Source: Candidatus Saccharimonadota bacterium (GTDB lineage Bacteria > Patescibacteriota > Saccharimonadia > Saccharimonadales > DTSZ01). Taken from it: a stretch of DNA of 64,000 bases. This document shows, one piece after another, positions 1,638 to 64,000 of the stretch; the first letter of the stretch is position 1, and each line of letters opens with the position of its first letter. The DNA is taken from contig DTSZ01000001.1 of NCBI GenBank assembly GCA_012965045.1, forward strand, positions 156,937 through 220,936. Reading direction: 5' to 3'. The translations under genes were made by a program, and so were the position numbers. The notes under the pieces were generated by a model. It saw nothing but the letters and a program-made list of their open reading frames with translations. It was not told the origin of the DNA and did not search any database.

Positions 1638-3521
1638 ATGCTAGGACATCAACCATCATTCCGGCACTTTTTATATACTGCCGTGGCAAATATTGCCACG
1701 CTTATTTTTGTTGTGATCGGAACTATTCTAATTGTGGCTTTAGCGCAAGGCTACCGCTACGATGTCGCCAGTGGCGAAGTGTCGTTGTCGGGGTTGTTGC
1801 GAGTTGAGTCTCGTCCCGTTACGGCTGAGGTTTTTATAGACGGCCAATCAACCGATGAACGCACATCATACAAAGAAACAATCCCTGAGGGCTCGTATAA
1901 TGTGGAGCTTGTAGCTGATGGCTATCGAACATGGCAAAAAGACGTACAAATTCGAGGTGGACTTGTGGAGTGGCTTCGGTACCCACGGTTGATACCAGAA
2001 ACACTTGTAGCAGAATCTGTCTTAGCTCAGCCAGCAACGCAAGAACTAAGCTTTAGCCCGGATGGCCAGTTTGCCGTGCGCGGAACTGCTCAGGAGCTTG
2101 CCTTGCTTGACTTAACTAATCCATCAGCACAACAACAGCCAATTAACTTAACTGTCGGGCCAGATAGCAGCATCCAATCAATACTGTGGAATTCAAATGG
2201 CTCGGCTGCGCTGATTGTGATTGCTGGCGAGCAACCGTCGTTTGTCATTTTTGAGCCAGAAAGCTTAAAAGTAACCGATGTCACCAAGGTGCTGTCGAGC
2301 TTTACGCCTGTAGCTTTGCTTGAAGATCAAATTATTGGACGACGAGGAGCAAATGACTTGTGGGCAGTTCCAATAAATGGTGAAACTGTTAGTCCACTTG
2401 CAGCGAGCGCAACAGCCTTTAGTACCAGCCAAAATTACACAGTTTGGGTTGAAGATGGCGTTATATCACTGTGGGATGGTGAGCAGATTGTTGCCATCGA
2501 AGATGTAATTCGGTACCCACGGTTGATACCAGAAACACTTGTAGCAGAATCTGTCTTAGCTCAGCCAGCAACGCAAGAACTAAGCTTTAGCCCGGATGGC
2601 CAGTTTGCCGTGCGCGGAACTGCTCAGGAGCTTGCCTTGCTTGACTTAACTAATCCATCAGCACAACAACAGCCAATTAACTTAACTGTCGGGCCAGATA
2701 GCAGCATCCAATCAATACTGTGGAATTCAAATGGCTCGGCTGCGCTGATTGTGATTGCTGGCGAGCAACCGTCGTTTGTCATTTTTGAGCCAGAAAGCTT
2801 AAAAGTAACCGATGTCACCAAGGTGCTGTCGAGCTTTACGCCTGTAGCTTTGCTTGAAGATCAAATTATTGGACGACGAGGAGCAAATGACTTGTGGGCA
2901 GTTCCAATAAATGGTGAAACTGTTAGTCCACTTGCAGCGAGCGCAACAGCCTTTAGTACCAGCCAAAATTACACAGTTTGGGTTGAAGATGGCGTTATAT
3001 CACTGTGGGATGGTGAGCAGATTGTTGCCATCGAAGATGTAATTGAAGCTACCCCGACAGAAATTGATATTTTTGAATTTGAAAGTAAACAATACATAGC
3101 TGGGATGACTGACGAAGGCGGCTTTATTATTCGCGATGTTCTTGGTAAACAATCGGTGCGTGACTTGCCGGCCGCCACTGACTATATTGAGGCCTCAAGA
3201 AATGGCCACTATGCTCTGTTCGAAACAACTACCGGCTATAACACTGTTGACCTAGATCAAAACACCGTTCATCAGTTTACGTTTGACCAAGAGGCTGCAA
3301 ACATCCGCTGGGCAGACGATTTTTCGCTTCTAGCAGAGGTTGGTGAGGCCCATGTCCTACTCGAATTCGACGGCGGCAACCAAGAAGTTGTAACTACAGC
3401 GTTGGATGCTTCTGATGTTGTTTTGTCTCAGTCTGGCCGGTCAGCCTACGTGGTGTCAGAAATTGCTGGATCAAACTCTACCGTACTCGACCAAATTAGC
3501 CTCATCGTTCAAGACAATTAA
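1638..3521 (+). CDS. Membrane-anchored PEGA-domain protein with an internal exact 178-aa duplication
   Basis: N-terminal TM helix. A PEGA-like segment follows (AEVFIDGQ...PEGSYNVELVADGYRTW). The rest is a beta-rich extracellular-looking region containing the duplicated block. Confidence 0.7.
   Translation: MLGHQPSFRHFLYTAVANIATLIFVVIGTILIVALAQGYRYDVASGEVSLSGLLRVESRPVTAEVFIDGQSTDERTSYKETIPEGSYNVELVADGYRTWQKDVQIRGGLVEWLRYPRLIPETLVAESVLAQPATQELSFSPDGQFAVRGTAQELALLDLTNPSAQQQPINLTVGPDSSIQSILWNSNGSAALIVIAGEQPSFVIFEPESLKVTDVTKVLSSFTPVALLEDQIIGRRGANDLWAVPINGETVSPLAASATAFSTSQNYTVWVEDGVISLWDGEQIVAIEDVIRYPRLIPETLVAESVLAQPATQELSFSPDGQFAVRGTAQELALLDLTNPSAQQQPINLTVGPDSSIQSILWNSNGSAALIVIAGEQPSFVIFEPESLKVTDVTKVLSSFTPVALLEDQIIGRRGANDLWAVPINGETVSPLAASATAFSTSQNYTVWVEDGVISLWDGEQIVAIEDVIEATPTEIDIFEFESKQYIAGMTDEGGFIIRDVLGKQSVRDLPAATDYIEASRNGHYALFETTTGYNTVDLDQNTVHQFTFDQEAANIRWADDFSLLAEVGEAHVLLEFDGGNQEVVTTALDASDVVLSQSGRSAYVVSEIAGSNSTVLDQISLIVQDN
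1977..3044 (+). repeat. Perfect tandem direct repeat, 2 x 534 bp, in frame within CDS 1638..3521
   Basis: 1977-2510 and 2511-3044 read identically. The ORF track also shows identical antisense ORFs at 2090..2287 and 2624..2821, offset by 534. Confidence 0.9.
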
Positions 3522-4969
3522 TCAAATAGCCAGTCGCGTAAGTTGTCCCATAGCGACCGCGTATTGCCGCCAATAATTTCTTGGTCTTCAGGGGTTAGTT
3601 CGATATCTGCTTCTTCTGCTTCTAGGGGGTCGGGGCTAATTTGTTCGGCCTGGATAACAAGACGCTTCCAACTGGTCCCTGGCGGCGTACAAGTAATGAG
3701 GGTTGAAATCGGTAGCCCGTTTGTTTCTTGGCTAACTACCCTAAATTCTGTCGGTTCAATAACTTCTTTGTTAAAAATTTCATAGACATAGCGCTTACCC
3801 TCGAAATGGATCATGTAGGTGTCGCCGATTTCTAAGCGGTCAAGGAGTGAAAACGCATTTTTGTGTTGTCCGCCGTTCCAGAAGCTGTTTGACGAGTGGC
3901 CTAAGATTACAGTATTACCAACTTGGCCGGGCAACGCTGTTCTAGCGTAGTGCACCACACCCTGTTCTAGATAGTCTTGAATCACATCATCGTTACGGGT
4001 TTCTACCCCATATACAGTAGGCACTTGGACATTGATTTTTGGAATTATAACTTCCGGTTCTGCCCCGACAGTGTTATTAGCTGAGGGATCGATAATTTGC
4101 GGAGAAACCACTGCATCACCCGGGCTAATGTAGTAGTTAATTTGGCCTGAAATTAGCTGGTTGTTGTACAGCACCAACACAAGTGCAGTAATAATTGCAG
4201 TTTTGTACATTGGATTCTTTTTTTGGGTTGGAGTTTTGTGTCGTTGTCGTTTCCAAAATTTAAGTTTGTCTTTTTTAGTTGCGCGCAGCTTTTCGGCCTG
4301 TTTTGTGAAGTTCTTAATCGCACTGTCTCGTGATGTAGCGGCAGAATGCATCTGACCTTCGGGATTAAGCTGCTGCGAAATAGTTGGTGCAGCAAACTGA
4401 TCCTCATTAACGACGGGTTGCTGAATGCTTGGTTGCGGCACTGGTGGCTCTACGTGCGGCCGGCTGGTTTGAGGACGTGGCGTGGATACTTGAGGCAGCG
4501 TAAATGCAGATTGAGCCTGCGGTAACTCAAAATGAGTATTCGGTGGCGGTAGTTCGTGGTCTGGCTGAGCAACATGATCAACATGATCTATAGATTGCTG
4601 CAGCGATTGTTCTCGTTCGTATAACATGCCGGTAGCTGGGCTGTGCGTATTGCCGTGCGGAATTTTAAATGTTTGGAAGTCTTTGTGGCTGCTGTCGTTT
4701 TGGTGCGGTGATTGGTGCGTGCTGGCCTGGGTTTGGGTCGATTGGTACGGTCGAAATACTGCTGGTTCAGGCGTTGGCTGTTCTACCACCGGTTGCTGTG
4801 GCTCTGGTTGTGGTTGAGCGGCTGGCTGTGGCTGAGAATCATCACCATATAAAGACGCCAATTTTGCGCGGACTAAATTGGCGGCAAGTTCACTGTTCTG
4901 GTCGGGGTCGTCTTTAGGCGGATTGCTGTTGCTAGAATTGCCTAAATACGGGTTATTGTGTCTATCCAT
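3518..4969 (-). CDS. Sortase-family transpeptidase with a long Pro/Gln-rich N-terminal region
   Basis: C-terminal LITCTPPG catalytic-Cys motif, an ILGHSS His motif, and one TM helix (IITALVLVLY). The ORF is open to 5062, but the ATG at 4969 just downstream of an AT-rich tataat-like stretch is more plausible. Confidence 0.8.
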   Translation of the reverse strand: MDRHNNPYLGNSSNSNPPKDDPDQNSELAANLVRAKLASLYGDDSQPQPAAQPQPEPQQPVVEQPTPEPAVFRPYQSTQTQASTHQSPHQNDSSHKDFQTFKIPHGNTHSPATGMLYEREQSLQQSIDHVDHVAQPDHELPPPNTHFELPQAQSAFTLPQVSTPRPQTSRPHVEPPVPQPSIQQPVVNEDQFAAPTISQQLNPEGQMHSAATSRDSAIKNFTKQAEKLRATKKDKLKFWKRQRHKTPTQKKNPMYKTAIITALVLVLYNNQLISGQINYYISPGDAVVSPQIIDPSANNTVGAEPEVIIPKINVQVPTVYGVETRNDDVIQDYLEQGVVHYARTALPGQVGNTVILGHSSNSFWNGGQHKNAFSLLDRLEIGDTYMIHFEGKRYVYEIFNKEVIEPTEFRVVSQETNGLPISTLITCTPPGTSWKRLVIQAEQISPDPLEAEEADIELTPEDQEIIGGNTRSLWDNLRDWLFD

Positions 4970-5209: not shown

Positions 5210-5298
5210 GGCGCGGTGGCGGAACTGGTAGACGCGCGGGACTCAAAATCCCGTTTGGTTAATCCCGAGTGTGGGTTCGATTCCCACCCGCGCCACCA
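5210..5298 (+). tRNA. tRNA-Leu (anticodon CAA), class II with long variable arm, CCA encoded
   Basis: Acceptor ggcgcgg/ccgcgcc, anticodon stem-loop cggga-ctCAAaa-tcccg, T arm gtggg-ttcgatt-cccac, then discriminator a plus cca. Confidence 0.9.
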
Positions 5299-56288: not shown

Positions 56289-57266
56289 TTACTGCTCCCA
56301 AGCAAAGTCTTTGTGCCCAAAGTGCCCATATTCGGCTGTGGTGGCATACTGAGGTTTTCGAAGATCTAAACTAGAAATTATTCCATTTGGACTTAAGTCG
56401 TAGCCGCTCACTAATTTTTGTTTACCATCAACTATTACAATTGCCTCCAACGGCTGGTCGTAGCCGATCGCATAGGCTAAGTAACAAAACACTTCTTTGG
56501 CGTTTTGTTTTTTAAGTGTGTCGCGGGCAATCTTTCGAGCCATGTAGGCAGCTGATCGGTCGACTTTCGAAGGGTCTTTCCCGGAAAAACAGCCGCCGCC
56601 AATTGGTATCCGCGGCCCGTAATTATCGACAACAAGTTTTCGGCCTGTTAGACCAGTGTCGGCGTCAAAACCGCCCATGTGCCAGTCGCCAGCAGGATTA
56701 ATGTGTAATGTTGTTTTCTTATCTGACTCGGCTAGTTGCTGTGTACTTAGCCATGTCTGCACGGCATCGGTTAATTCGGCACTTGCTGCGTTCTGAAAGC
56801 TGGCCACAACTGATTCAATTGAATTATCGCGTAGGGTTATTTGAGTTTTACCATCAAACTCCCACTGGCTGTACAAGTACTGGTTTAATTGTCGTGACAA
56901 TACTACCTCAAGCGGCAACAACTCTTCGGTTTCGCTGCTGGCATATCCCACCATTATTCCTTGGTCGCCGGCTCCACCTGTATCGACACCTTGGGCAATT
57001 TCTGGGCTTTGAGCGACGATTCTGGTTTCAACTTCTATACTGTGTCCAACAATGGTCCGAGCAGTCTCCTCTATGTCTATATCGGCAGTTGATGTAACTT
57101 CACCAAATACAAACAGCTTACCGTGCCCGCCTGCAGATTCTACAGCTACACGAGCGTTTGGGTCGTCGCGCAGATAGGCATCTAGAATCTTGTCCGACAC
57201 TCGGTCGCATAGTTTGTCGGGGTGTTTAGGCGACACGCTTTCTGCGCTTTTGTAATTTGTTGACAT
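56289..57266 (-). CDS. metK: S-adenosylmethionine synthetase (short, 325 aa)
   Basis: SAESVSPKHPDKLCDRVSDKILDA and GAGDQGIMVGYA motifs, with a SAM-I riboswitch upstream. Confidence 0.85.
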   Translation of the reverse strand: MSTNYKSAESVSPKHPDKLCDRVSDKILDAYLRDDPNARVAVESAGGHGKLFVFGEVTSTADIDIEETARTIVGHSIEVETRIVAQSPEIAQGVDTGGAGDQGIMVGYASSETEELLPLEVVLSRQLNQYLYSQWEFDGKTQITLRDNSIESVVASFQNAASAELTDAVQTWLSTQQLAESDKKTTLHINPAGDWHMGGFDADTGLTGRKLVVDNYGPRIPIGGGCFSGKDPSKVDRSAAYMARKIARDTLKKQNAKEVFCYLAYAIGYDQPLEAIVIVDGKQKLVSGYDLSPNGIISSLDLRKPQYATTAEYGHFGHKDFAWEQ

Positions 57267-57319: not shown

Positions 57320-57432
57320 TCACCATCTTCCTGCGTTTGAATGTCATGCAGGCTGAATGTAGCACCTTGCGTGAATTGCTGGTTGCTGGCGGGTCATAGG
57401 GTCAGGTCCCTCGCCGCTCTCTTGATGCCGAT
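57320..57432 (-). promoter_or_regulatory. SAM-I (S-box) riboswitch
   Basis: The minus-strand RNA is aucggcAUCAAGAGAGcGGcGAGGGACcUGaCCCuAUGAcCCgccaGCAACCagc...aaGGUGCUAcAUUCaGCcugc...gcaGGAAGAUGgugau. It matches the conserved S-box core and P1 pairing, directly upstream of metK. Confidence 0.85.
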
Positions 57433-60738: not shown

Positions 60739-61653
60739 TTACGGAGTTTCGGCTTCTACTTGTACGGTGTTTGCTTGTGGAATTTTCTTTTTTACAGCTG
60801 TTTTAATTTTGTCACTTAAGACTTCGATCTCATTCGTAGTCAAATCGTCGACAAAATGGATTTCTAAGATTATTAATAGCTTGCCAGAGCCTAAGTGCAG
60901 TGTTTTTAGGTCCAGTACTTCGTTTACGCCGTCGAGTTTTGTACAGGCAGCTACAATTGCTTTTTGCATAGCCGGCGTTATGGCTCGTCCAACAATTAAG
61001 CTTTTGGCGTCATATACTAAAAGTGCAGAGGTAACCATCATGCTAACACCAACAATCATGGCGCCAATACCGTCAAAAATAACTGACCCTGTAATTAGGT
61101 ATAAACCAATTGCCACCAGACCAAAAAGGGCTGAAGCCGTGCCGAGCGAATCAACCAGTAAGGTGGCTTTTGTTTCAACCAAGCTGGAGCTGACCAGTTT
61201 TGTTCGGTCTCGTCGTTTCAAAAAATTAATACCAAGTCGTTTACGGCTAAGGTTGAACGAGTATCCGTTCGTAAATAGCCCGAAGCTTAGCGTTACCAGC
61301 GCCAGCCAAATGGTGTCAATCGGCTGCTGGTCGATAACTTGCTGTAGGCCTAAAAACAGCGAAAACAAGCCAGTGCCAACAAACATAAACAGGCCAGCAA
61401 CTAACACATAAAAAAACACTTCCCTGCCGTAACCAAGCGGGTGTTGTTTGTCGGCAGCCTTTTCAGACTGCGTTACGCCAAAAAAAAGTATCCCGGCGGT
61501 TACTAAATCACTCAAGCCTTGCAGTGCTTGCGAAAACATAACCGCACTACCAGTTATAAAGCCTACAAAAAGGTTAAATAATACGTCACCAACACTTACA
61601 GCAAATGACGTCCCAACCGCTCGCTTTTGTGAAATTGTTTGTTTTTTTGCCAT
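60739..61653 (-). CDS. Cation diffusion facilitator (CDF) family metal efflux transporter
   Basis: Six TM helices with Asp-containing segments (LQGLSDLVT, DGIGAMIVG) and a C-terminal cytoplasmic alpha/beta domain. Confidence 0.75.
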   Translation of the reverse strand: MAKKQTISQKRAVGTSFAVSVGDVLFNLFVGFITGSAVMFSQALQGLSDLVTAGILFFGVTQSEKAADKQHPLGYGREVFFYVLVAGLFMFVGTGLFSLFLGLQQVIDQQPIDTIWLALVTLSFGLFTNGYSFNLSRKRLGINFLKRRDRTKLVSSSLVETKATLLVDSLGTASALFGLVAIGLYLITGSVIFDGIGAMIVGVSMMVTSALLVYDAKSLIVGRAITPAMQKAIVAACTKLDGVNEVLDLKTLHLGSGKLLIILEIHFVDDLTTNEIEVLSDKIKTAVKKKIPQANTVQVEAETP

Positions 61654-61733
61654 AACAATAGTCTAACAGCTTGATACATTCCCTTCACCTGTTTAAAATA
61701 AGCGGAGCATCTTTTTGTGCGATTATATTTCAA

Positions 61734-61764
61734 AAGGTATAATCATCACGAATGGCGAGTCGCC
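61734..61764 (+). repeat. Copy of the tRNA-Gln promoter plus first 12 nt of the tRNA
   Basis: aaggtataatcatcacgaatggcgagtcgcc versus aaggtataatcaacgacaatggcgagtcgcc at 62126-62156 (27 of 31 identical). Confidence 0.7.
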
Positions 61765-61854
61765 CTACCTGCGGCAGGCAGGCAAGTGTGAGAAATACTT
61801 TAAAGTATTTCGCAAGGTCGGAAACCCGGCGCAAGTTATTGCCCGAGTTGAGAC

Positions 61855-61949
61855 GGGGTGAAACATGCTGGTAGCATGTTGCAAGGAAATCTACTCTTGA
61901 AAACTGGGTTTTCAAAGATGTAGTTTCGGGATCGCAGGATGTGATGCGG
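61855..61949 (+). repeat. Structured unit U1
   Basis: Homologous to 62007-62105 (offset 152). The hairpins acatgc-tggt-agcatgt and ctactcttgaaaa...ttttcaaagatgtag differ from U2 by compensatory changes. Confidence 0.6.
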
Positions 61950-61976
61950 AATTTTTACAAAGTAAAAATATCTGTG

Positions 61977-62010
61977 ACAAGGCACATGGTTTTGGTCCAT
62001 GCATTCGGGG
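61977..62010 (+). other. tRNA-Gln-like anticodon arm copy (no complete tRNA)
   Basis: aaggcaCATGGttttggtCCATGcattcgggg versus the genuine aaggcaCTGGAttttggtTCCAGcattcggggg. The loop is identical and the stem is re-paired with different bases. No T arm or acceptor 3' strand follows. Confidence 0.6.
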
Positions 62011-62105
62011 TGAGACGAGCCAGTGGCTCGTTGCAAGGAAACTTACTCTTGAAAATTAATTTTCAAAGAAGTAATTTCGGGCTCGCGGGACGTGAGTCGA
62101 ATCCG
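62007..62105 (+). repeat. Structured unit U2
   Basis: Contains the hairpins acgagc-cagt-ggctcgt and ttactcttgaaaa...ttttcaaagaagtaa. The perfect hairpin gtcgaat-ccg-attcgac (62096-62112) extends just beyond the aligned unit. Confidence 0.6.
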
Positions 62106-62129
62106 ATTCGAACCGGCGTGAATTTAAGG

Positions 62130-62135
62130 TATAAT
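62130..62135 (+). promoter_or_regulatory. -10 box (tataat) of tRNA-Gln
   Basis: A perfect TATAAT ending 9 nt before the mature tRNA 5' end. The same box sits at 61738-61743. Confidence 0.5.
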
Positions 62136-62144
62136 CAACGACAA

Positions 62145-62219
62145 TGGCGAGTCGCCAAGTGGTAAGGCACTGGATTTTGGTTCCAGCATTCGGGGGTTCG
62201 AATCCCTCCTCGCCAGCCA
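62145..62219 (+). tRNA. tRNA-Gln (anticodon UUG), CCA encoded
   Basis: Acceptor tggcgag/ctcgcca, anticodon stem-loop ctgga-ttTTGgt-tccag, T arm ggggg-ttcgaat-ccctc, then discriminator g plus cca. Confidence 0.9.
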
Positions 62220-62243
62220 AACATAGCACCGAAGGAGACTTCA

Positions 62244-62978
62244 TTGCTTTCAATTATTGCGCTTATTGTTTCAGTTATCGCTGTCATTGTGTCGATTATT
62301 AGTTTGTGGAAAGCTTATCTTGCTCCGCTCAAACTAGAAGTAGCAGCCGGAGAATTAAGGTTTAGAATCTATCCTGTTAAAAATTCTGTTAAGAAATGGT
62401 ATCTTCCTACATTCACTGTGCCAATATCATTAGCAAATGTTGGTGCAAAACCTGGAAAGGTGCTAAGCCTAAGACTAGTAGCCCATTACCCACAAATCAA
62501 ACCTGCAGGCGCTAAGGAAACTTTTAGATGGTATGGAGAAGTTGAACCGAGGCAGTTCAGAAAAGATGCACAACATATATTTAAGTGGCAGAATACTTCC
62601 GTTATTGCAGGCAATGAACCGTTCATTGTTCCTCCAAAATCTACATACACAAAATACATGGTCTTTAAGAAAAGATGGGATCACCCTGTTGGTGCAAAAG
62701 AAATACGATATACACTGCAAATTTATACCGATCGAAAGAACAAGTGGCATGATATTGAAACATGGACCATGTCCCTGACACCCCTTTATTGGTCAGAGCT
62801 TACTGAAAATTTAAGTTCAATTGGGGTTAGTTCCGATAGCACCCCTAGAAAATATACCGAAACTATCCCAAAGGACCTACATAGTCTGATAAGAATAGAC
62901 AGTAAAATTCCCAAAGGGGGGTTTCAGACGGAACCGACCTATGTAGACTCTGAAGCTACTGATGAAGATAAAGTATAG
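62244..62978 (+). CDS. Hypothetical membrane-anchored protein (orphan)
   Basis: aaggag RBS, TTG start, and an N-terminal TM helix. 9 of 11 Arg codons are AGA/AGG by my count. It lies directly downstream of tRNA-Gln. Confidence 0.5.
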   Translation: MLSIIALIVSVIAVIVSIISLWKAYLAPLKLEVAAGELRFRIYPVKNSVKKWYLPTFTVPISLANVGAKPGKVLSLRLVAHYPQIKPAGAKETFRWYGEVEPRQFRKDAQHIFKWQNTSVIAGNEPFIVPPKSTYTKYMVFKKRWDHPVGAKEIRYTLQIYTDRKNKWHDIETWTMSLTPLYWSELTENLSSIGVSSDSTPRKYTETIPKDLHSLIRIDSKIPKGGFQTEPTYVDSEATDEDKV

Positions 62979-63140
62979 TCAGGTAATAGAGACTAATCTG
63001 ATCAGCCAAATGGAAAAGAGCCCAGCACGGACTTTTTTTGAATAAGATAAAGACTTGAATCTCCGATTTGAAAAGTATTAGGCTAGATAAATTTCAAATT
63101 TTGAACGTATACAAAGTCGTTATTTTTAACGAAGAATTTA

Positions 63141-63803
63141 TTATATACTTTCTATAAATTTTGACAGCATTTCAGCGCTAGTTAATTCATCTGTGTCAAA
63201 TTTGGTGCAACTTACATCTGTTTCTATTTCTAATATACTTATAATTTCGTGCCATGCTCTTTGATATCTTTCGAGAAACACCAACGAATTGAACCCCCAG
63301 AAATTCTCGAATGTATCTGTTTTTTGCCTTTCAGCGATTCTCTGTGAGATAACACTAAATGGAGCATGGACCAGATTAATGCTGTCTGGTAATTGATCTG
63401 CGGCTTCAATCCATTTGTGGGCCACATCAAGATGGTGCCGGTGACTTAACTCGGAAGTAATTGTCTGTCTCATCACTGCATGGGATACGCGGGTTACTAG
63501 CTCGCCACCTGACGTAGCGATTTTGCGGCCTTCTGAGTATTTGGCTTCCGCTAGGTTTTTAAAATCAGAGTTAAGGTCTATGTATATATCCTCTCTTTCA
63601 GCTATCATTTCTGCGTCTAAGACTTGAGTAGCTGTTCGTTTTCGGAATTCACGCGCGCGAGAAGAGGATGTTGGTTCAAGAATTTCGTAGCCAATTGTAG
63701 CAAGAGCACCGAGCCATGTTGATTTCCCTGAACCATCTACACCTAGAACCAGGAGTCTATCAGGGGATTTCTCTAGTTGGGCCTCTACTTTACCAATTAA
63801 CAT
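63141..63803 (-). CDS. P-loop NTPase, nucleotide/nucleoside-kinase-like (unassigned)
   Basis: LVLGVDGSGKSTW Walker A of the dNMP-kinase style. The rest of the protein is not recognisable. Confidence 0.5.
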   Translation of the reverse strand: MLIGKVEAQLEKSPDRLLVLGVDGSGKSTWLGALATIGYEILEPTSSSRAREFRKRTATQVLDAEMIAEREDIYIDLNSDFKNLAEAKYSEGRKIATSGGELVTRVSHAVMRQTITSELSHRHHLDVAHKWIEAADQLPDSINLVHAPFSVISQRIAERQKTDTFENFWGFNSLVFLERYQRAWHEIISILEIETDVSCTKFDTDELTSAEMLSKFIESI

Positions 63804-63863
63804 ATTTGAATTATAATCAAATAACTCACTAAATCAAGTAAGTGAAATAGATGGTTGCAGAAT

Positions 63864-64000
63864 ATGATTGAACAAGGAAGTATGCATGCAAAGCCTGAAG
63901 AGAGACCTAATATCGCTTTGTCTTCCTTAGGTGAAACTCTTACTGAAAGCGACTACGGGATTGAAGCCGGAGTTCTTAGCCTGATTGAAAGTGAAAAAGG
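63864..64000 (+). CDS. Partial ORF running off the window end
   Basis: ATG at 63864 with an open frame to the window edge (MIEQGSMHAKPEERPNIALSSLGETL...). No motif recognised. Confidence 0.25.
   Translation, partial: MIEQGSMHAKPEERPNIALSSLGETLTESDYGIEAGVLSLIESEK

Follow-up and report, generated by a model that had tools for sequence, protein, structure and literature searches.

What is the block of tRNA-like and structured sequence that precedes a tRNA-Gln gene in the genome of a Candidatus Saccharimonadota bacterium? The window analyzed here is a stretch of 64,000 nucleotides of contig DTSZ01000001.1, and the features described lie on its + strand. The intact gene, tRNA-Gln(UUG), was identified at 62145..62219 (ARAGORN; Rfam RF00005, 62.4 bits), with a TATAAT -10 box at 62130..62135. 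Neither ARAGORN nor Rfam (E <= 10) found a tRNA in the block at 61753-62114, the only one detected being that at 62145-62219, and ARAGORN ruled out a tmRNA or a second tRNA within the block. The initial annotation had described tandem modules, each behind a tRNA-like piece. Instead, the block is a single truncated tRNA-Gln duplicate with inserts in its D-loop and T-loop, which are three copies of an ~87-nt unit termed U: a degenerate U0 in the D-loop, U1 nested within U0, and U2 in the T-loop.

The duplicate extends from the promoter through tRNA-Gln nt 1 to ~61, and retains the -10 box, nt 1-12, the D-loop, the anticodon arm, and the T-stem 5' strand, while the acceptor 3' strand is missing. 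Its TATAAT box (61738..61743; repeat D4) matches the consensus at 6/6 positions and lies 9 nt 5' of the copy. The copy of nt 1-12 (acceptor 5' strand and D-stem 5' strand; 61753..61764) is identical to 62145-62156. As first noticed, promoter and initial 12 nt are present twice (61734-61764 and 62126-62156, 27/31 identical), and the 12-mer TGGCGAGTCGCC has only these two + strand sites in the window (61753 and 62145), against a chance expectation of 0.16. Between the D-stem 5' strand and the D-loop is a 19-nt G+C-rich extra segment, CTACCTGCGGCAGGCAGGC (61765..61783), which forms a small hairpin in the MFE fold. It is followed by AAGTG (61784..61788), the 5' part of the tRNA-Gln D-loop and the left flank of the D-loop insertion; the junction is as in L018 and L027, reading CCAAGTG/TGAGAC in L018 (slashes mark junctions). 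After the insertion, the copy resumes with tRNA-Gln nt ~22-53 (61979..62010; repeat D3, 78% identical), comprising the D-stem 3' strand, the anticodon arm, the variable loop CATTC, and the T-stem 5' strand GGGG. The anticodon-arm copy had also been read correctly: 61974-62010 aligns with tRNA positions 62159-62195 (78%, D3), its loop, TTTTGGT, is unchanged, and the stem pairs through other bases (CATGG/CCATG against CTGGA/TCCAG in the tRNA). The pseudo-tRNA ends with TCGAATCC (62097..62104), the 3' part of the T-loop and the start of the T-stem 3' strand. Directly behind it stands GATTCGAACC (62105..62114; inverted repeat I5), which is the reverse complement of GGTTCGAATC, repeats the uninterrupted T-stem/T-loop in inverted orientation, and provides a TTCGAA hexamer 17 nt 5' of the -10 box of the intact gene. 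Downstream of tRNA-Gln, the window carries a defence-type island.

The unit U0 had been overlooked. Its 5' part (61789..61858) consists of TGAGAAAT, hairpin A', GCAAGG, an altered hairpin B', and GGGG; it is matched by the U covariance model at 61781-61829 (14.7 bits, E = 6.5e-4), folds with the same UG..CA-closed hairpin A, and includes inverted repeat I1. The 3' remainder (61946..61978) holds the rest of hairpin C (GCGGAA ... GTGAC), whose loop has gained a 22-nt A+T-rich hairpin relative to the consensus hairpin C, GTCGCGGAACGTGAC. The right junction of U0, GTGAC/AAGGCAC, is the same in L018 and L027. Contig ERZ940683 k127_285525 diverges from the window directly after 61978. U1 (core 61859..61945; 103.3 bits) runs from TGAAAC to hairpin C, ATCGCAGGATGTGAT, and is nested in U0 at GGGG/GT/CGC. 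U2 (core 62011..62096; 108.5 bits) replaces the GT of GGGG/GT/TCGAATCC in the T-loop, and its flanks equal the intact tRNA sequence minus exactly 2 nt. The homology proposed for U1 and U2 holds (80-86%; repeats D1/D2), as do the compensatory differences in hairpins A and B, whereas the extents had to be corrected to these cores and a third compensatory hairpin, C (AUCGC..GUGAU against CUCGC..GUGAG), had escaped notice. The tRNA-like pieces had been said to end in GGGG; this is right before U2, where GGGG is the T-stem 5' strand, but U1 does not stand behind a tRNA-like piece, and the GGGG before it is the junction of U0 itself. U1 and U2 each fold better than shuffled sequence (z = -3.4 and -3.2), and so does the whole block (z = -4.3).

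Genomes were scanned with the pattern GGGGTGA-N10-25-TTGCAAGGAAA-N25-45-TTTCGGG, and 42 loci were retrieved, with ~0.4 expected by chance according to our own calculation. Forty-one were from CPR bacteria, and 36 were labelled Saccharibacteria, Saccharimonadales, or Saccharimonas. L035 (Bacteroidales) was left out because it matched the pattern with chance-like long gaps in coding-like sequence. The same pattern was present at 33 metagenome loci, and the covariance model R1 yielded 54 + 46 strong copies (~100), which provided the homologues in relatives that the initial annotation had suggested looking for. Viral contigs, phage records, and plasmids contained no match, and a phage or plasmid origin of U was rejected on this basis. 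The comparison with Rfam (release 15), likewise suggested at the outset, gave no match over U0, U1, or U2 at E <= 10 and none over the block at gathering thresholds, by which a known RNA family was rejected; at gathering thresholds, 12 related loci contained only tRNAs and one group I intron. The literature searched on tRNA insertions, pseudo-tRNAs, and structured RNAs in Saccharibacteria/Patescibacteria contained no description of U, only papers on group I introns and general studies. U is an undescribed family of ~87-nt non-coding insertion elements, with a sampled range of Saccharibacteria and other CPR bacteria.

Each U consists of three hairpins (A, B, and C) joined by purine-rich, near-invariant linkers (UGARA..UUGCAAG-GAAA..UUUC-GGG), with hairpin A 5 nt from the left end and hairpin C at the right end. 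In an alignment of 41 copies, the helix cells were paired in 97.9%, compared with 26-46% when the partners were slid, and 19/32 base pairs showed double changes. Compensatory cells numbered 191 against a shuffle mean of 50, and none of 500 shuffles reached that value. On the tRNA-sense strand, G.U/U.G cells far outnumbered A.C/C.A cells (64 and 8). These comparisons support genuine structuring of the U helices on the tRNA-sense strand, as had been proposed for the window copies. The sequence of U is conserved on the scale of the tRNAs themselves. Simple pseudogene decay had been doubted from the start, and rightly, as U is structured, covarying, and recurrent in other genomes.

The copies are tied to tRNA genes. 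Apart from a few in decayed or unresolved contexts, they point the same way as a tRNA gene at a distance of 55-77 nt. Most genome copies have a tRNA on their own strand, either 66-77 nt upstream or 55-70 nt downstream, with outliers at 7, 32, 149, and 266 nt; the metagenome loci show the same two arrangements. No copy was found in a complete tRNA. The hosts are only truncated tRNA copies, or another U, adjoining an intact tRNA, and the flanks of most copies are identical to the neighboring tRNA. In type B, to which the window belongs, a truncated 5' tRNA part lies upstream of the intact tRNA. In type A, a truncated 3' part lies downstream, separated from the tRNA by just ~70 nt plus U; about half of the family is found downstream of tRNAs. 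The earlier statement that duplication is limited to the 5' and middle portions of the tRNA applies to the window and not to the family, where 3' parts are duplicated equally often. Two Saccharibacteria loci (L027 and L018) repeat the double D-loop and T-loop design of the window, and tRNA operons are bracketed by U on both sides in L027, L034, L026, and L008. The loci carrying U include Gln-UUG, Gln-CUG, Val-UAC, Arg-UCU, Arg-UCG, and Pro-GGG. Flanking proteins at the orthologous U-bearing tRNA-Gln locus are merely 30-45% identical. When the neighboring genes of 2-15-kb loci were clustered, no recurrent integrase- or recombinase-like neighbor emerged; a common mobilizing gene beside U was rejected, as the neighbors cluster by tRNA-locus synteny.

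The insertions have a constant signature. In all 41 copies with exactly matching 7-nt flanks, the tRNA is short of exactly 2 nt, the lost dinucleotide being GT (33), TT (7), or CA (1). The sites are the T-loop, the Pro anticodon loop, the D-loop, the D-stem, the variable loop, and GGGG/GT/CGC within U itself. Left flanks are GGGG, GTG, GCG, GAGG, AGAG, and GTAG, with the final G as the sole common base. To our knowledge, no known transposition or recombination chemistry fits an exact 2-nt target replacement. Nested equivalents of U1 were found at four other loci (L051, L052, L032, and L078), and copies 0.93-0.99 identical occur at non-orthologous tRNA loci of different species, both of which argue for mobility. 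Copies within a genome are no more alike than copies between genomes (identity 0.66 and 0.71, respectively), and there is thus no sign of recent bursts. Degenerate copies are U0 and L067, and contig L004 shows a structural variant with a break exactly at a U boundary. The view that the block is not a mobile-element feature is not supported, since the family behaves as a site-specific insertion element would, with U copies inside U, five or more kinds of insertion site, the constant 2-nt loss, and partial tRNA duplications to either side of intact tRNAs.

U does not behave as an intron of a complete tRNA: its removal in silico restored a tRNA in 0/54 copies (90 boundary/fill settings each), and a synthetic positive control was recovered in 71/90 settings. 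Nor can the fragments of one operon form a single split tRNA, because its 5' and 3' fragments often come from different tRNAs (Gly/Arg in L034 and Lys/Arg in L026). Non-canonical introns and split genes of archaeal tRNAs also involve D-loop, variable-loop, and T-loop inserts, apparent transposition between tRNAs, and separate halves. These introns form bulge-helix-bulge motifs excised by a splicing endonuclease not known from Bacteria. Archaeal hosts are complete tRNAs or matching halves, in contrast to the truncated copies bearing U, whose halves often belong to different tRNAs. Group I introns, which occur in tRNA genes of Patescibacteria (PMC13011429), share with U the phylum, the location in tRNA loops, and a conserved RNA structure. 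However, U measures 87 nt, its removal never restores the tRNA, and an intact tRNA always stands alongside. No group I core (RF00028) was matched in 61600-62300 at E <= 10, and nhmmer with the U profile found no similarity to a genuine Patescibacteria tRNA intron, by which a relationship was rejected.

In 34/59 testable copies, U is adjoined by the uninterrupted target in inverted orientation, compared with 11/59 in the sense-strand control; the antisense strand is GAUUCGAACACCCGAC. The inverted-copy motif recurs after type B copies at L005, L015, L016, L041, L040, L047, and L079. Its inner part is conserved (TTCGAAC-A-CCCGAC), whereas its outer part decays neutrally (G.U 23, A.C 24), and RNA-level selection on a closing helix between the inverted copy and the 3' fragment was rejected for that outer part on the same counts. 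In type A, the 3' fragment is still identical to the neighboring tRNA in 12/17 cases, although the inverted copy next to it is decaying. An origin of the inverted copy as a primer-binding site derived from mature tRNA is disfavored, since the inverted similarity extends 8-10 nt beyond CCA into the trailer.

Transcription of the block can be considered from promoter and terminator predictions. At least ten other type B pseudo-tRNAs carry a -10-like box within 22 nt upstream. The + strand terminator scan gave one weak terminator-like match, at 61932-61949 (U1 hairpin C plus AATTTTTACA), and predicted no terminator between 61949 and tRNA-Gln. With the duplicated tRNA promoter and no terminator predicted downstream of 61949, it is plausible that the block is co-transcribed with tRNA-Gln and then cut off by RNase P, acting at the 5' end of the tRNA. 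As for a riboswitch or leader of tRNA-Gln, a separate -10 box for the intact gene stands between the block and the tRNA, and the terminator-like match in U1 is weak.

Taken together, the block is best explained as a truncated tRNA-Gln duplicate that was colonized three times by undescribed U insertion elements of CPR bacteria, a reading to which we assign a probability of roughly 0.6. U0 would have gone into the D-loop, U1 into U0, and U2 into the T-loop. Folding of the sense strand, as RNA or single-stranded DNA, may be needed for U to persist or spread, and compensatory upkeep of the helices would follow if that strand must fold. Transcription of the block probably starts at the duplicated tRNA promoter and continues into tRNA-Gln, and an RNase P cut at the tRNA 5' end would leave a stable ~390-nt structured RNA that could not be aminoacylated. 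The partial and inverted tRNA duplications would most simply be by-products of insertion into an essential single-copy gene, in which only events regenerating an intact tRNA in cis would survive, for example via template switching during replication. Several observations sit less easily with a mobile element. The same tRNA loci carry U over deep divergence, which fits an old, host-retained functional RNA as well; the neighboring genes follow tRNA-locus synteny, and no mobilizing enzyme was recognized; recent bursts are not apparent; the 2-nt replacement fits no chemistry known to us; and pure parasitism does not account for type A 3' fragments kept identical beside a decaying inverted copy.

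Known small mobile elements offer partial parallels to the U insertions. Like the IS200/IS605-derived miniature elements (PATEs) and REP/RAYT, U is small and non-coding, has no terminal inverted repeats, carries hairpins near both ends, is strictly strand- and orientation-specific, forms nested copies, and makes no target-site duplication. The subterminal hairpins and single-strand specificity of PATEs have counterparts in U, with A and C terminal and G.U pairs in strand-specific excess over A.C. For PATEs and REP/RAYT, however, insertion takes place 3' of one fixed tetra- or pentanucleotide and the target stays unaltered, whereas U replaces exactly 2 nt and needs just a preceding G. Further distinctions of U are its long, conserved hairpin in the center, its invariant linkers, and its restriction to tRNA-derived sequence, where it is accompanied by partial tRNA duplications, both direct and inverted. 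MITEs such as Correia/NEMIS, RUP, and BOX are likewise ~100-nt multicopy repeats in modular or nested arrangement, and are co-transcribed with neighboring genes. The ends of U (TGARA... and ...hairpin C) are not inverted repeats, its flanks show loss and not duplication, and the MITE families have no known covariation-supported local hairpins or tRNA-loop targeting.

It is possible, and we suggest this tentatively, that U is a novel class of mobile element with unfamiliar chemistry, or else a five-way-junction RNA controlling CPR tRNA operons. As an element, it would be a protein-free or trans-mobilized structured RNA or single-stranded DNA that enters exposed tRNA loops (D, anticodon, variable, and T) and itself, replacing exactly two nucleotides, with the adjacent antisense copy of the uninterrupted target serving as guide or splint. 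As an RNA, the junction would be assembled from the tRNA T-arm, its antisense strand, and the U hairpins.

A host-functional RNA on a tRNA scaffold, with mobility ancient or irrelevant, appears doubtful. In this reading, a conserved five-way junction (H_L, A, B, C, and H_R) would be built from U, the T-arm flanks, and the antisense GAUUCGAAC(A)CCCGA, and types A and B would be its circular permutations. Flanking tRNA operons, the RNA would have a part in the regulation, processing, or protection of tRNA transcripts, or it would serve as a decoy for proteins that bind or cleave tRNA. Such retention would agree with six tRNA loci carrying U despite the low identity of flanking proteins, with conservation on the tRNA scale, with operons bracketed on both sides, with -10 boxes kept by pseudo-tRNAs, with the re-paired and not decayed anticodon stem of the window copy, with 3' fragments and the inner inverted copy remaining conserved, and with streamlined genomes, which argue against useless DNA. 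GOLLD and ROOL, ornate RNAs of unknown function frequently adjoining tRNA genes (PMC5737381), are comparable in being structured and next to tRNA genes; they are independent 500-800-nt genes, whereas U is small, multicopy, within tRNA-derived sequence, and was not found in phage collections. Nested U-in-U copies and the degenerate U0 and L067 are hard to fit to a single functional architecture, and the insertion sites vary (D-loop, D-stem, variable loop, anticodon loop, and T-loop). Moreover, the outer inverted copy decays neutrally, the inverted copy is present in just 34/59, and the fragments of one operon are often from different tRNAs.

It is unlikely that U is an att-site remnant of integrase-mobilized tRNA-targeting elements, in which U would be an attP arm or a small RNA at the element end and the truncated tRNAs would be attL/attR left by very small cis-mobilizable elements or deleted larger islands. 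As at integrase att sites, a partial tRNA adjoins an intact one and the T-loop and anticodon loop are hot spots; both loops are reportedly classical integrase crossover sites. Type A resembles a classical attR in that the 3' end of the tRNA recurs as a displaced, identical fragment from T-loop to CCA, and the island downstream of the window tRNA-Gln and the L004 break at a U boundary also count for this reading. Fragments of tRNA genes that stem from integrating elements are reported to be common among prokaryotes (10.1101/2022.07.05.498093). In an att scar, the 3' part of the tRNA would be directly repeated at the borders of an integrase-carrying element, but the window duplicates the 5' and middle parts, promoter included. 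The displaced fragment is separated from the tRNA by no more than ~70 nt plus U, leaving no element body, and no integrase recurs nearby. Site-specific recombination would not cause the 2-nt loss of 41/41 copies, and D-loop, D-stem, variable-loop, and U-internal inserts are left unaccounted for. Covarying hairpins with strand-specific G.U pairs are unexpected for protein-binding att arms, and viral contigs, phage records, and plasmids contained no match.

Plain decay of a tandemly duplicated tRNA-Gln with hairpins arising by chance would explain the duplicated promoter and tRNA pieces, but has practically no probability left, refuted by recurrence of the U modules ~100 times elsewhere with covariation, by the fold z values (-3.2 to -4.3), and by the constant 2-nt loss.

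Saccharibacteria and other CPR bacteria have streamlined ~1-Mb genomes, and many of their tRNA operons are bordered, on one side or both, by 100-400 nt of U material. Should U be mobile, its insertion signature would lie outside known families, combining 2-nt replacement, absence of target duplication and inverted ends, tRNA-loop targets, and direct and inverted partial duplications, and its copies would offer repeats for ectopic recombination, as the one strain variant with its break precisely at the edge of a U illustrates. Should it be functional instead, it would be a new RNA class with tRNA-level conservation and a link to tRNA expression in a lineage that is uncultivated. In both cases, U accounts for truncated tRNA matches and contig breaks beside tRNA genes in CPR MAGs, and can be annotated with the covariance model R1.

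Read by the context rules of the U family, the block upstream of tRNA-Gln(UUG) (62145-62219) is, on its sequence, one truncated copy of that tRNA gene, into which three copies of U, an element of approximately 87 nt with three hairpins (A, B, and C), are set. A -10 box (61738-61743) is followed by tRNA nt 1-12 (61753-61764), 19 extra nt (61765-61783), and the D-loop motif AAGTG (61784-61788). The degenerate 5' part of U0 (61789-61858; covariance-model match, E = 6.5e-4) is interrupted by the nested U1 (61859-61945), and the remaining hairpin C of U0, with a 22-nt A+T-rich insert (61946-61978), precedes tRNA nt ~22-53 (61979-62010). U2 lies in the T-loop (62011-62096), followed by TCGAATCC (62097-62104), the inverted copy GATTCGAACC (62105-62114), the real -10 box (62130-62135), and the intact tRNA gene. 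The insert in the loop of U0 hairpin C is itself a hairpin (TTTTTAC AAAG TAAAAA…, 61950-61973); U1 hairpin C together with this insert (61932-61949 plus AATTTTTACA) gives the block its sole + strand match resembling a terminator.

The duplication of the promoter and tRNA nt 1-12 described in the initial annotation was recovered with 27 of 31 positions identical, and the 12-mer of tRNA nt 1-12 has only two + strand sites (0.16 expected by chance). The reported tRNA-Gln copy at 61974-62010 also holds, running from the end of the D-loop to the 5' strand of the T-stem with an identical anticodon loop and a re-paired stem. The two units of approximately 90 nt are 80-86% identical with compensatory differences, as had been claimed, but these concern three hairpins rather than two. 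The block folds far below shuffled sequence (z = -4.3), and its Rfam search matched no family even at E ≤ 10. The interpretation given in the initial annotation is upheld in part: covariation and an excess of G.U pairs support the structured units that had been proposed, whereas the tandem layout gives way to one truncated tRNA-Gln copy with U1 nested. A covariance-model search of the whole window found no U near its only other tRNA gene, tRNA-Leu(CAA) (5210-5298).

The initial annotation had proposed a search for unit homologues and covariation in related genomes, and both were found. A pattern of the linkers common to U1 and U2 (GGGGTGA, TTGCAAGGAAA, and TTTCGGG), with the hairpins between them left free, retrieved 42 loci among genomes (one per species), compared with ~0.4 expected by chance from our own calculation; 41 were in CPR MAGs, mostly Saccharibacteria. 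The same pattern gave 33 further loci in metagenomes and zero in viral contigs. The covariance model, built from 41 U copies, identified 54 strong copies in genome loci and 46 in metagenome loci, some of which miss the exact pattern. Phage and plasmid records held no match to U, and no description of it was found in the literature searched.

Pairing was counted over hairpins A, B, and C in the 41 aligned copies. Paired cells made up 97.9%, compared with 26-46% when the partners were slid, and both-sided changes occurred in 19 of 32 base pairs. The 191 compensatory cells (shuffle mean, 50) were reached by none of 500 shuffles. On the tRNA-sense strand, G.U/U.G cells outnumbered A.C/C.A cells (64 vs. 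8), and hairpin C is complete only on this strand. The structure is thus strand-specific, and the sense strand of U folds, either as RNA or as single-stranded DNA.

Nearly all U copies are co-oriented with a tRNA gene (Gln, Val, Arg, Pro, Met, Lys, Tyr, Gly, or Phe). In genome loci, the tRNA mostly lies 66-77 nt upstream or 55-70 nt downstream of U, with outliers at 7, 32, 149, and 266 nt and a few copies with no tRNA in range; metagenome loci have the same two arrangements. In type A, U follows an intact tRNA: its left flank is the variable loop and GGGG of that tRNA, and hairpin C is followed by a T-loop-to-CCA stretch, which matches the tRNA at every base in 12 of 17 cases. Separating U from the intact tRNA are a hairpin resembling a terminator and a decayed copy of the tRNA 3' half in inverted orientation, which reaches 8-10 nt into the trailer. 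Type B, to which the window belongs, has a promoter and the 5' portion of the tRNA through GGGG ahead of U; behind U come TCGAATC, in most cases the inverted motif GATTCGAACC, and then the intact tRNA's own promoter. An inverted copy of the uninterrupted target lay beside U in 34 of 59 cases, compared with 11 of 59 for the sense control, and is therefore enriched but not universal.

At four loci (L027, L034, L026, and L008), U flanks a tRNA operon on either side. Loci L027 and L018 share the double design of the window at tRNA-Gln, with U in the D-loop and T-loop. In L018 and L024, as in the window, tRNA-Gln(UUG) adjoins two GT4 genes and a hydrolase, a synteny in which the proteins are only 30-45% identical; the association of U with this locus is therefore old, or U was acquired there repeatedly.

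The window is identical to hydrothermal-vent metagenome contigs (JGI 3300001678 Mariner_1000003 and ENA ERZ940678), and the contig of locus L003 stops at 61938, within U1. Downstream of tRNA-Gln (62244-64000 and beyond; L001 1-5410), an island-like gene set encodes a 244-aa protein without a Pfam match, a weak AAA/P-loop protein, radical SAM and CYTH proteins, a MazE-like antitoxin, and type I restriction HsdR; G+C falls to 40.5% in 62001-64000. Elsewhere, a short S-adenosylmethionine synthetase gene (56289-57266, -; 325 aa), with only partial Pfam matches to the N-terminal and central domains, has a SAM-I riboswitch upstream (RF00162, 56.6 bits; 57320-57431, -). The metK operon has as neighbors a ChaB-family gene and a second gene with matches to several baeRF (bacterial-archaeal release-factor-like) families (L001 12179-12915, window ~54.7-55.5 kb).

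Besides the T-loop, U was found in the anticodon loop of tRNA-Pro(GGG), the D-loop (L018 and L027), the D-stem (L008 and L078), the variable loop (L068), and the GGGG/GT/CGC junction of U itself (L051, L052, L032, and L078). When both 7-nt flanks of each copy were compared with the neighboring intact tRNA, exactly 2 tRNA nt were missing in all 41 copies with both flanks exact (GT in 33, TT in 7, and CA in 1). The left flank ended in G in every copy, this comparison revealed no target duplication, and the two ends of U are not inverted repeats of one another. U is not an intron of a working gene, since its in silico removal restored a tRNA in 0 of 54 copies while a synthetic positive control was recovered.

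A host function for U may be considered as the alternative to mobility: the same tRNA loci hold U across deep divergence, no bursts occur within genomes, promoters are kept, the anticodon stem of the window's tRNA-Gln copy is re-paired, and 3' fragments show no divergence from the tRNA, in contrast to the decaying inverted copy. A five-way junction could be closed by the inverted copy and the flanks, and types A and B would then be circularly permuted forms of it. U behaves like a site-specific insertion element, as is shown in part, and mobility is favored by nested and degenerate copies, many kinds of insertion site, and copies 0.93-0.99 identical at non-orthologous tRNA loci of different species. 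No gene for mobilization recurs among the neighboring genes compared. A strain variant sampled separately within the same vent project (L004 1-113; ENA ERZ940683 k127_285525) also favors mobility: 99.9% identical to the window until 61978 (…TATCTGTGAC), it departs exactly at a U boundary (61978/61979) into CAAGTCCTACCGCCCCAGCC…, which is absent from the window and resembles the T-loop and 3' end of another tRNA-Gln. Either a rearrangement between U copies at the strain level or an assembly join at this repeat may explain the divergence.

Two U copies of one MAG (SRP135725_co1_554; L016 303-407, Arg-UCU type B, and L020 5690-5794, Val-UAC type A) are 94% identical and share an otherwise rare hairpin B, a likeness that suggests recent intragenomic copying or gene conversion. 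Locus L067 contains a large inverted duplication, with identical U copies and flanks in opposite orientation 1.6 kb apart (1713-1817, +; 3427-3531, -); part of the duplication is a decayed type A element that follows tRNA-Gly.

Of the known systems, U comes closest to IS200/IS605-type miniature elements and REPs, to structured MITEs, and to the group I introns that were recently reported from tRNAs of Patescibacteria (PMC13011429), but it lacks at least one defining feature of each. The first share with U end hairpins, one-strand logic, and the absence of target duplication. The 2-nt replacement matches neither conservative site-specific recombination, DDE transposition, HUH single-strand transposition, nor intron homing. 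In agreement with those reports, locus L037 has a tRNA (GTT anticodon context; 4385-4720, +) with a group I intron in its anticodon loop (RF00028, 75.4 bits); on the opposite strand, at a distance of 200 nt, is a U copy with no assigned tRNA context.

With U taken as a site-specific insertion element, its sense-strand fold would be needed to persist or spread. The block is a pseudo-tRNA-Gln colonized by U, probably transcribed from the duplicated promoter and severed by RNase P during tRNA-Gln maturation. The partial direct and inverted tRNA duplications probably let insertion into an essential single-copy tRNA gene survive. U forms a new and well-supported family, unusual in its insertion signature; we place it among small non-autonomous insertion elements and see a real chance that its category is itself new.
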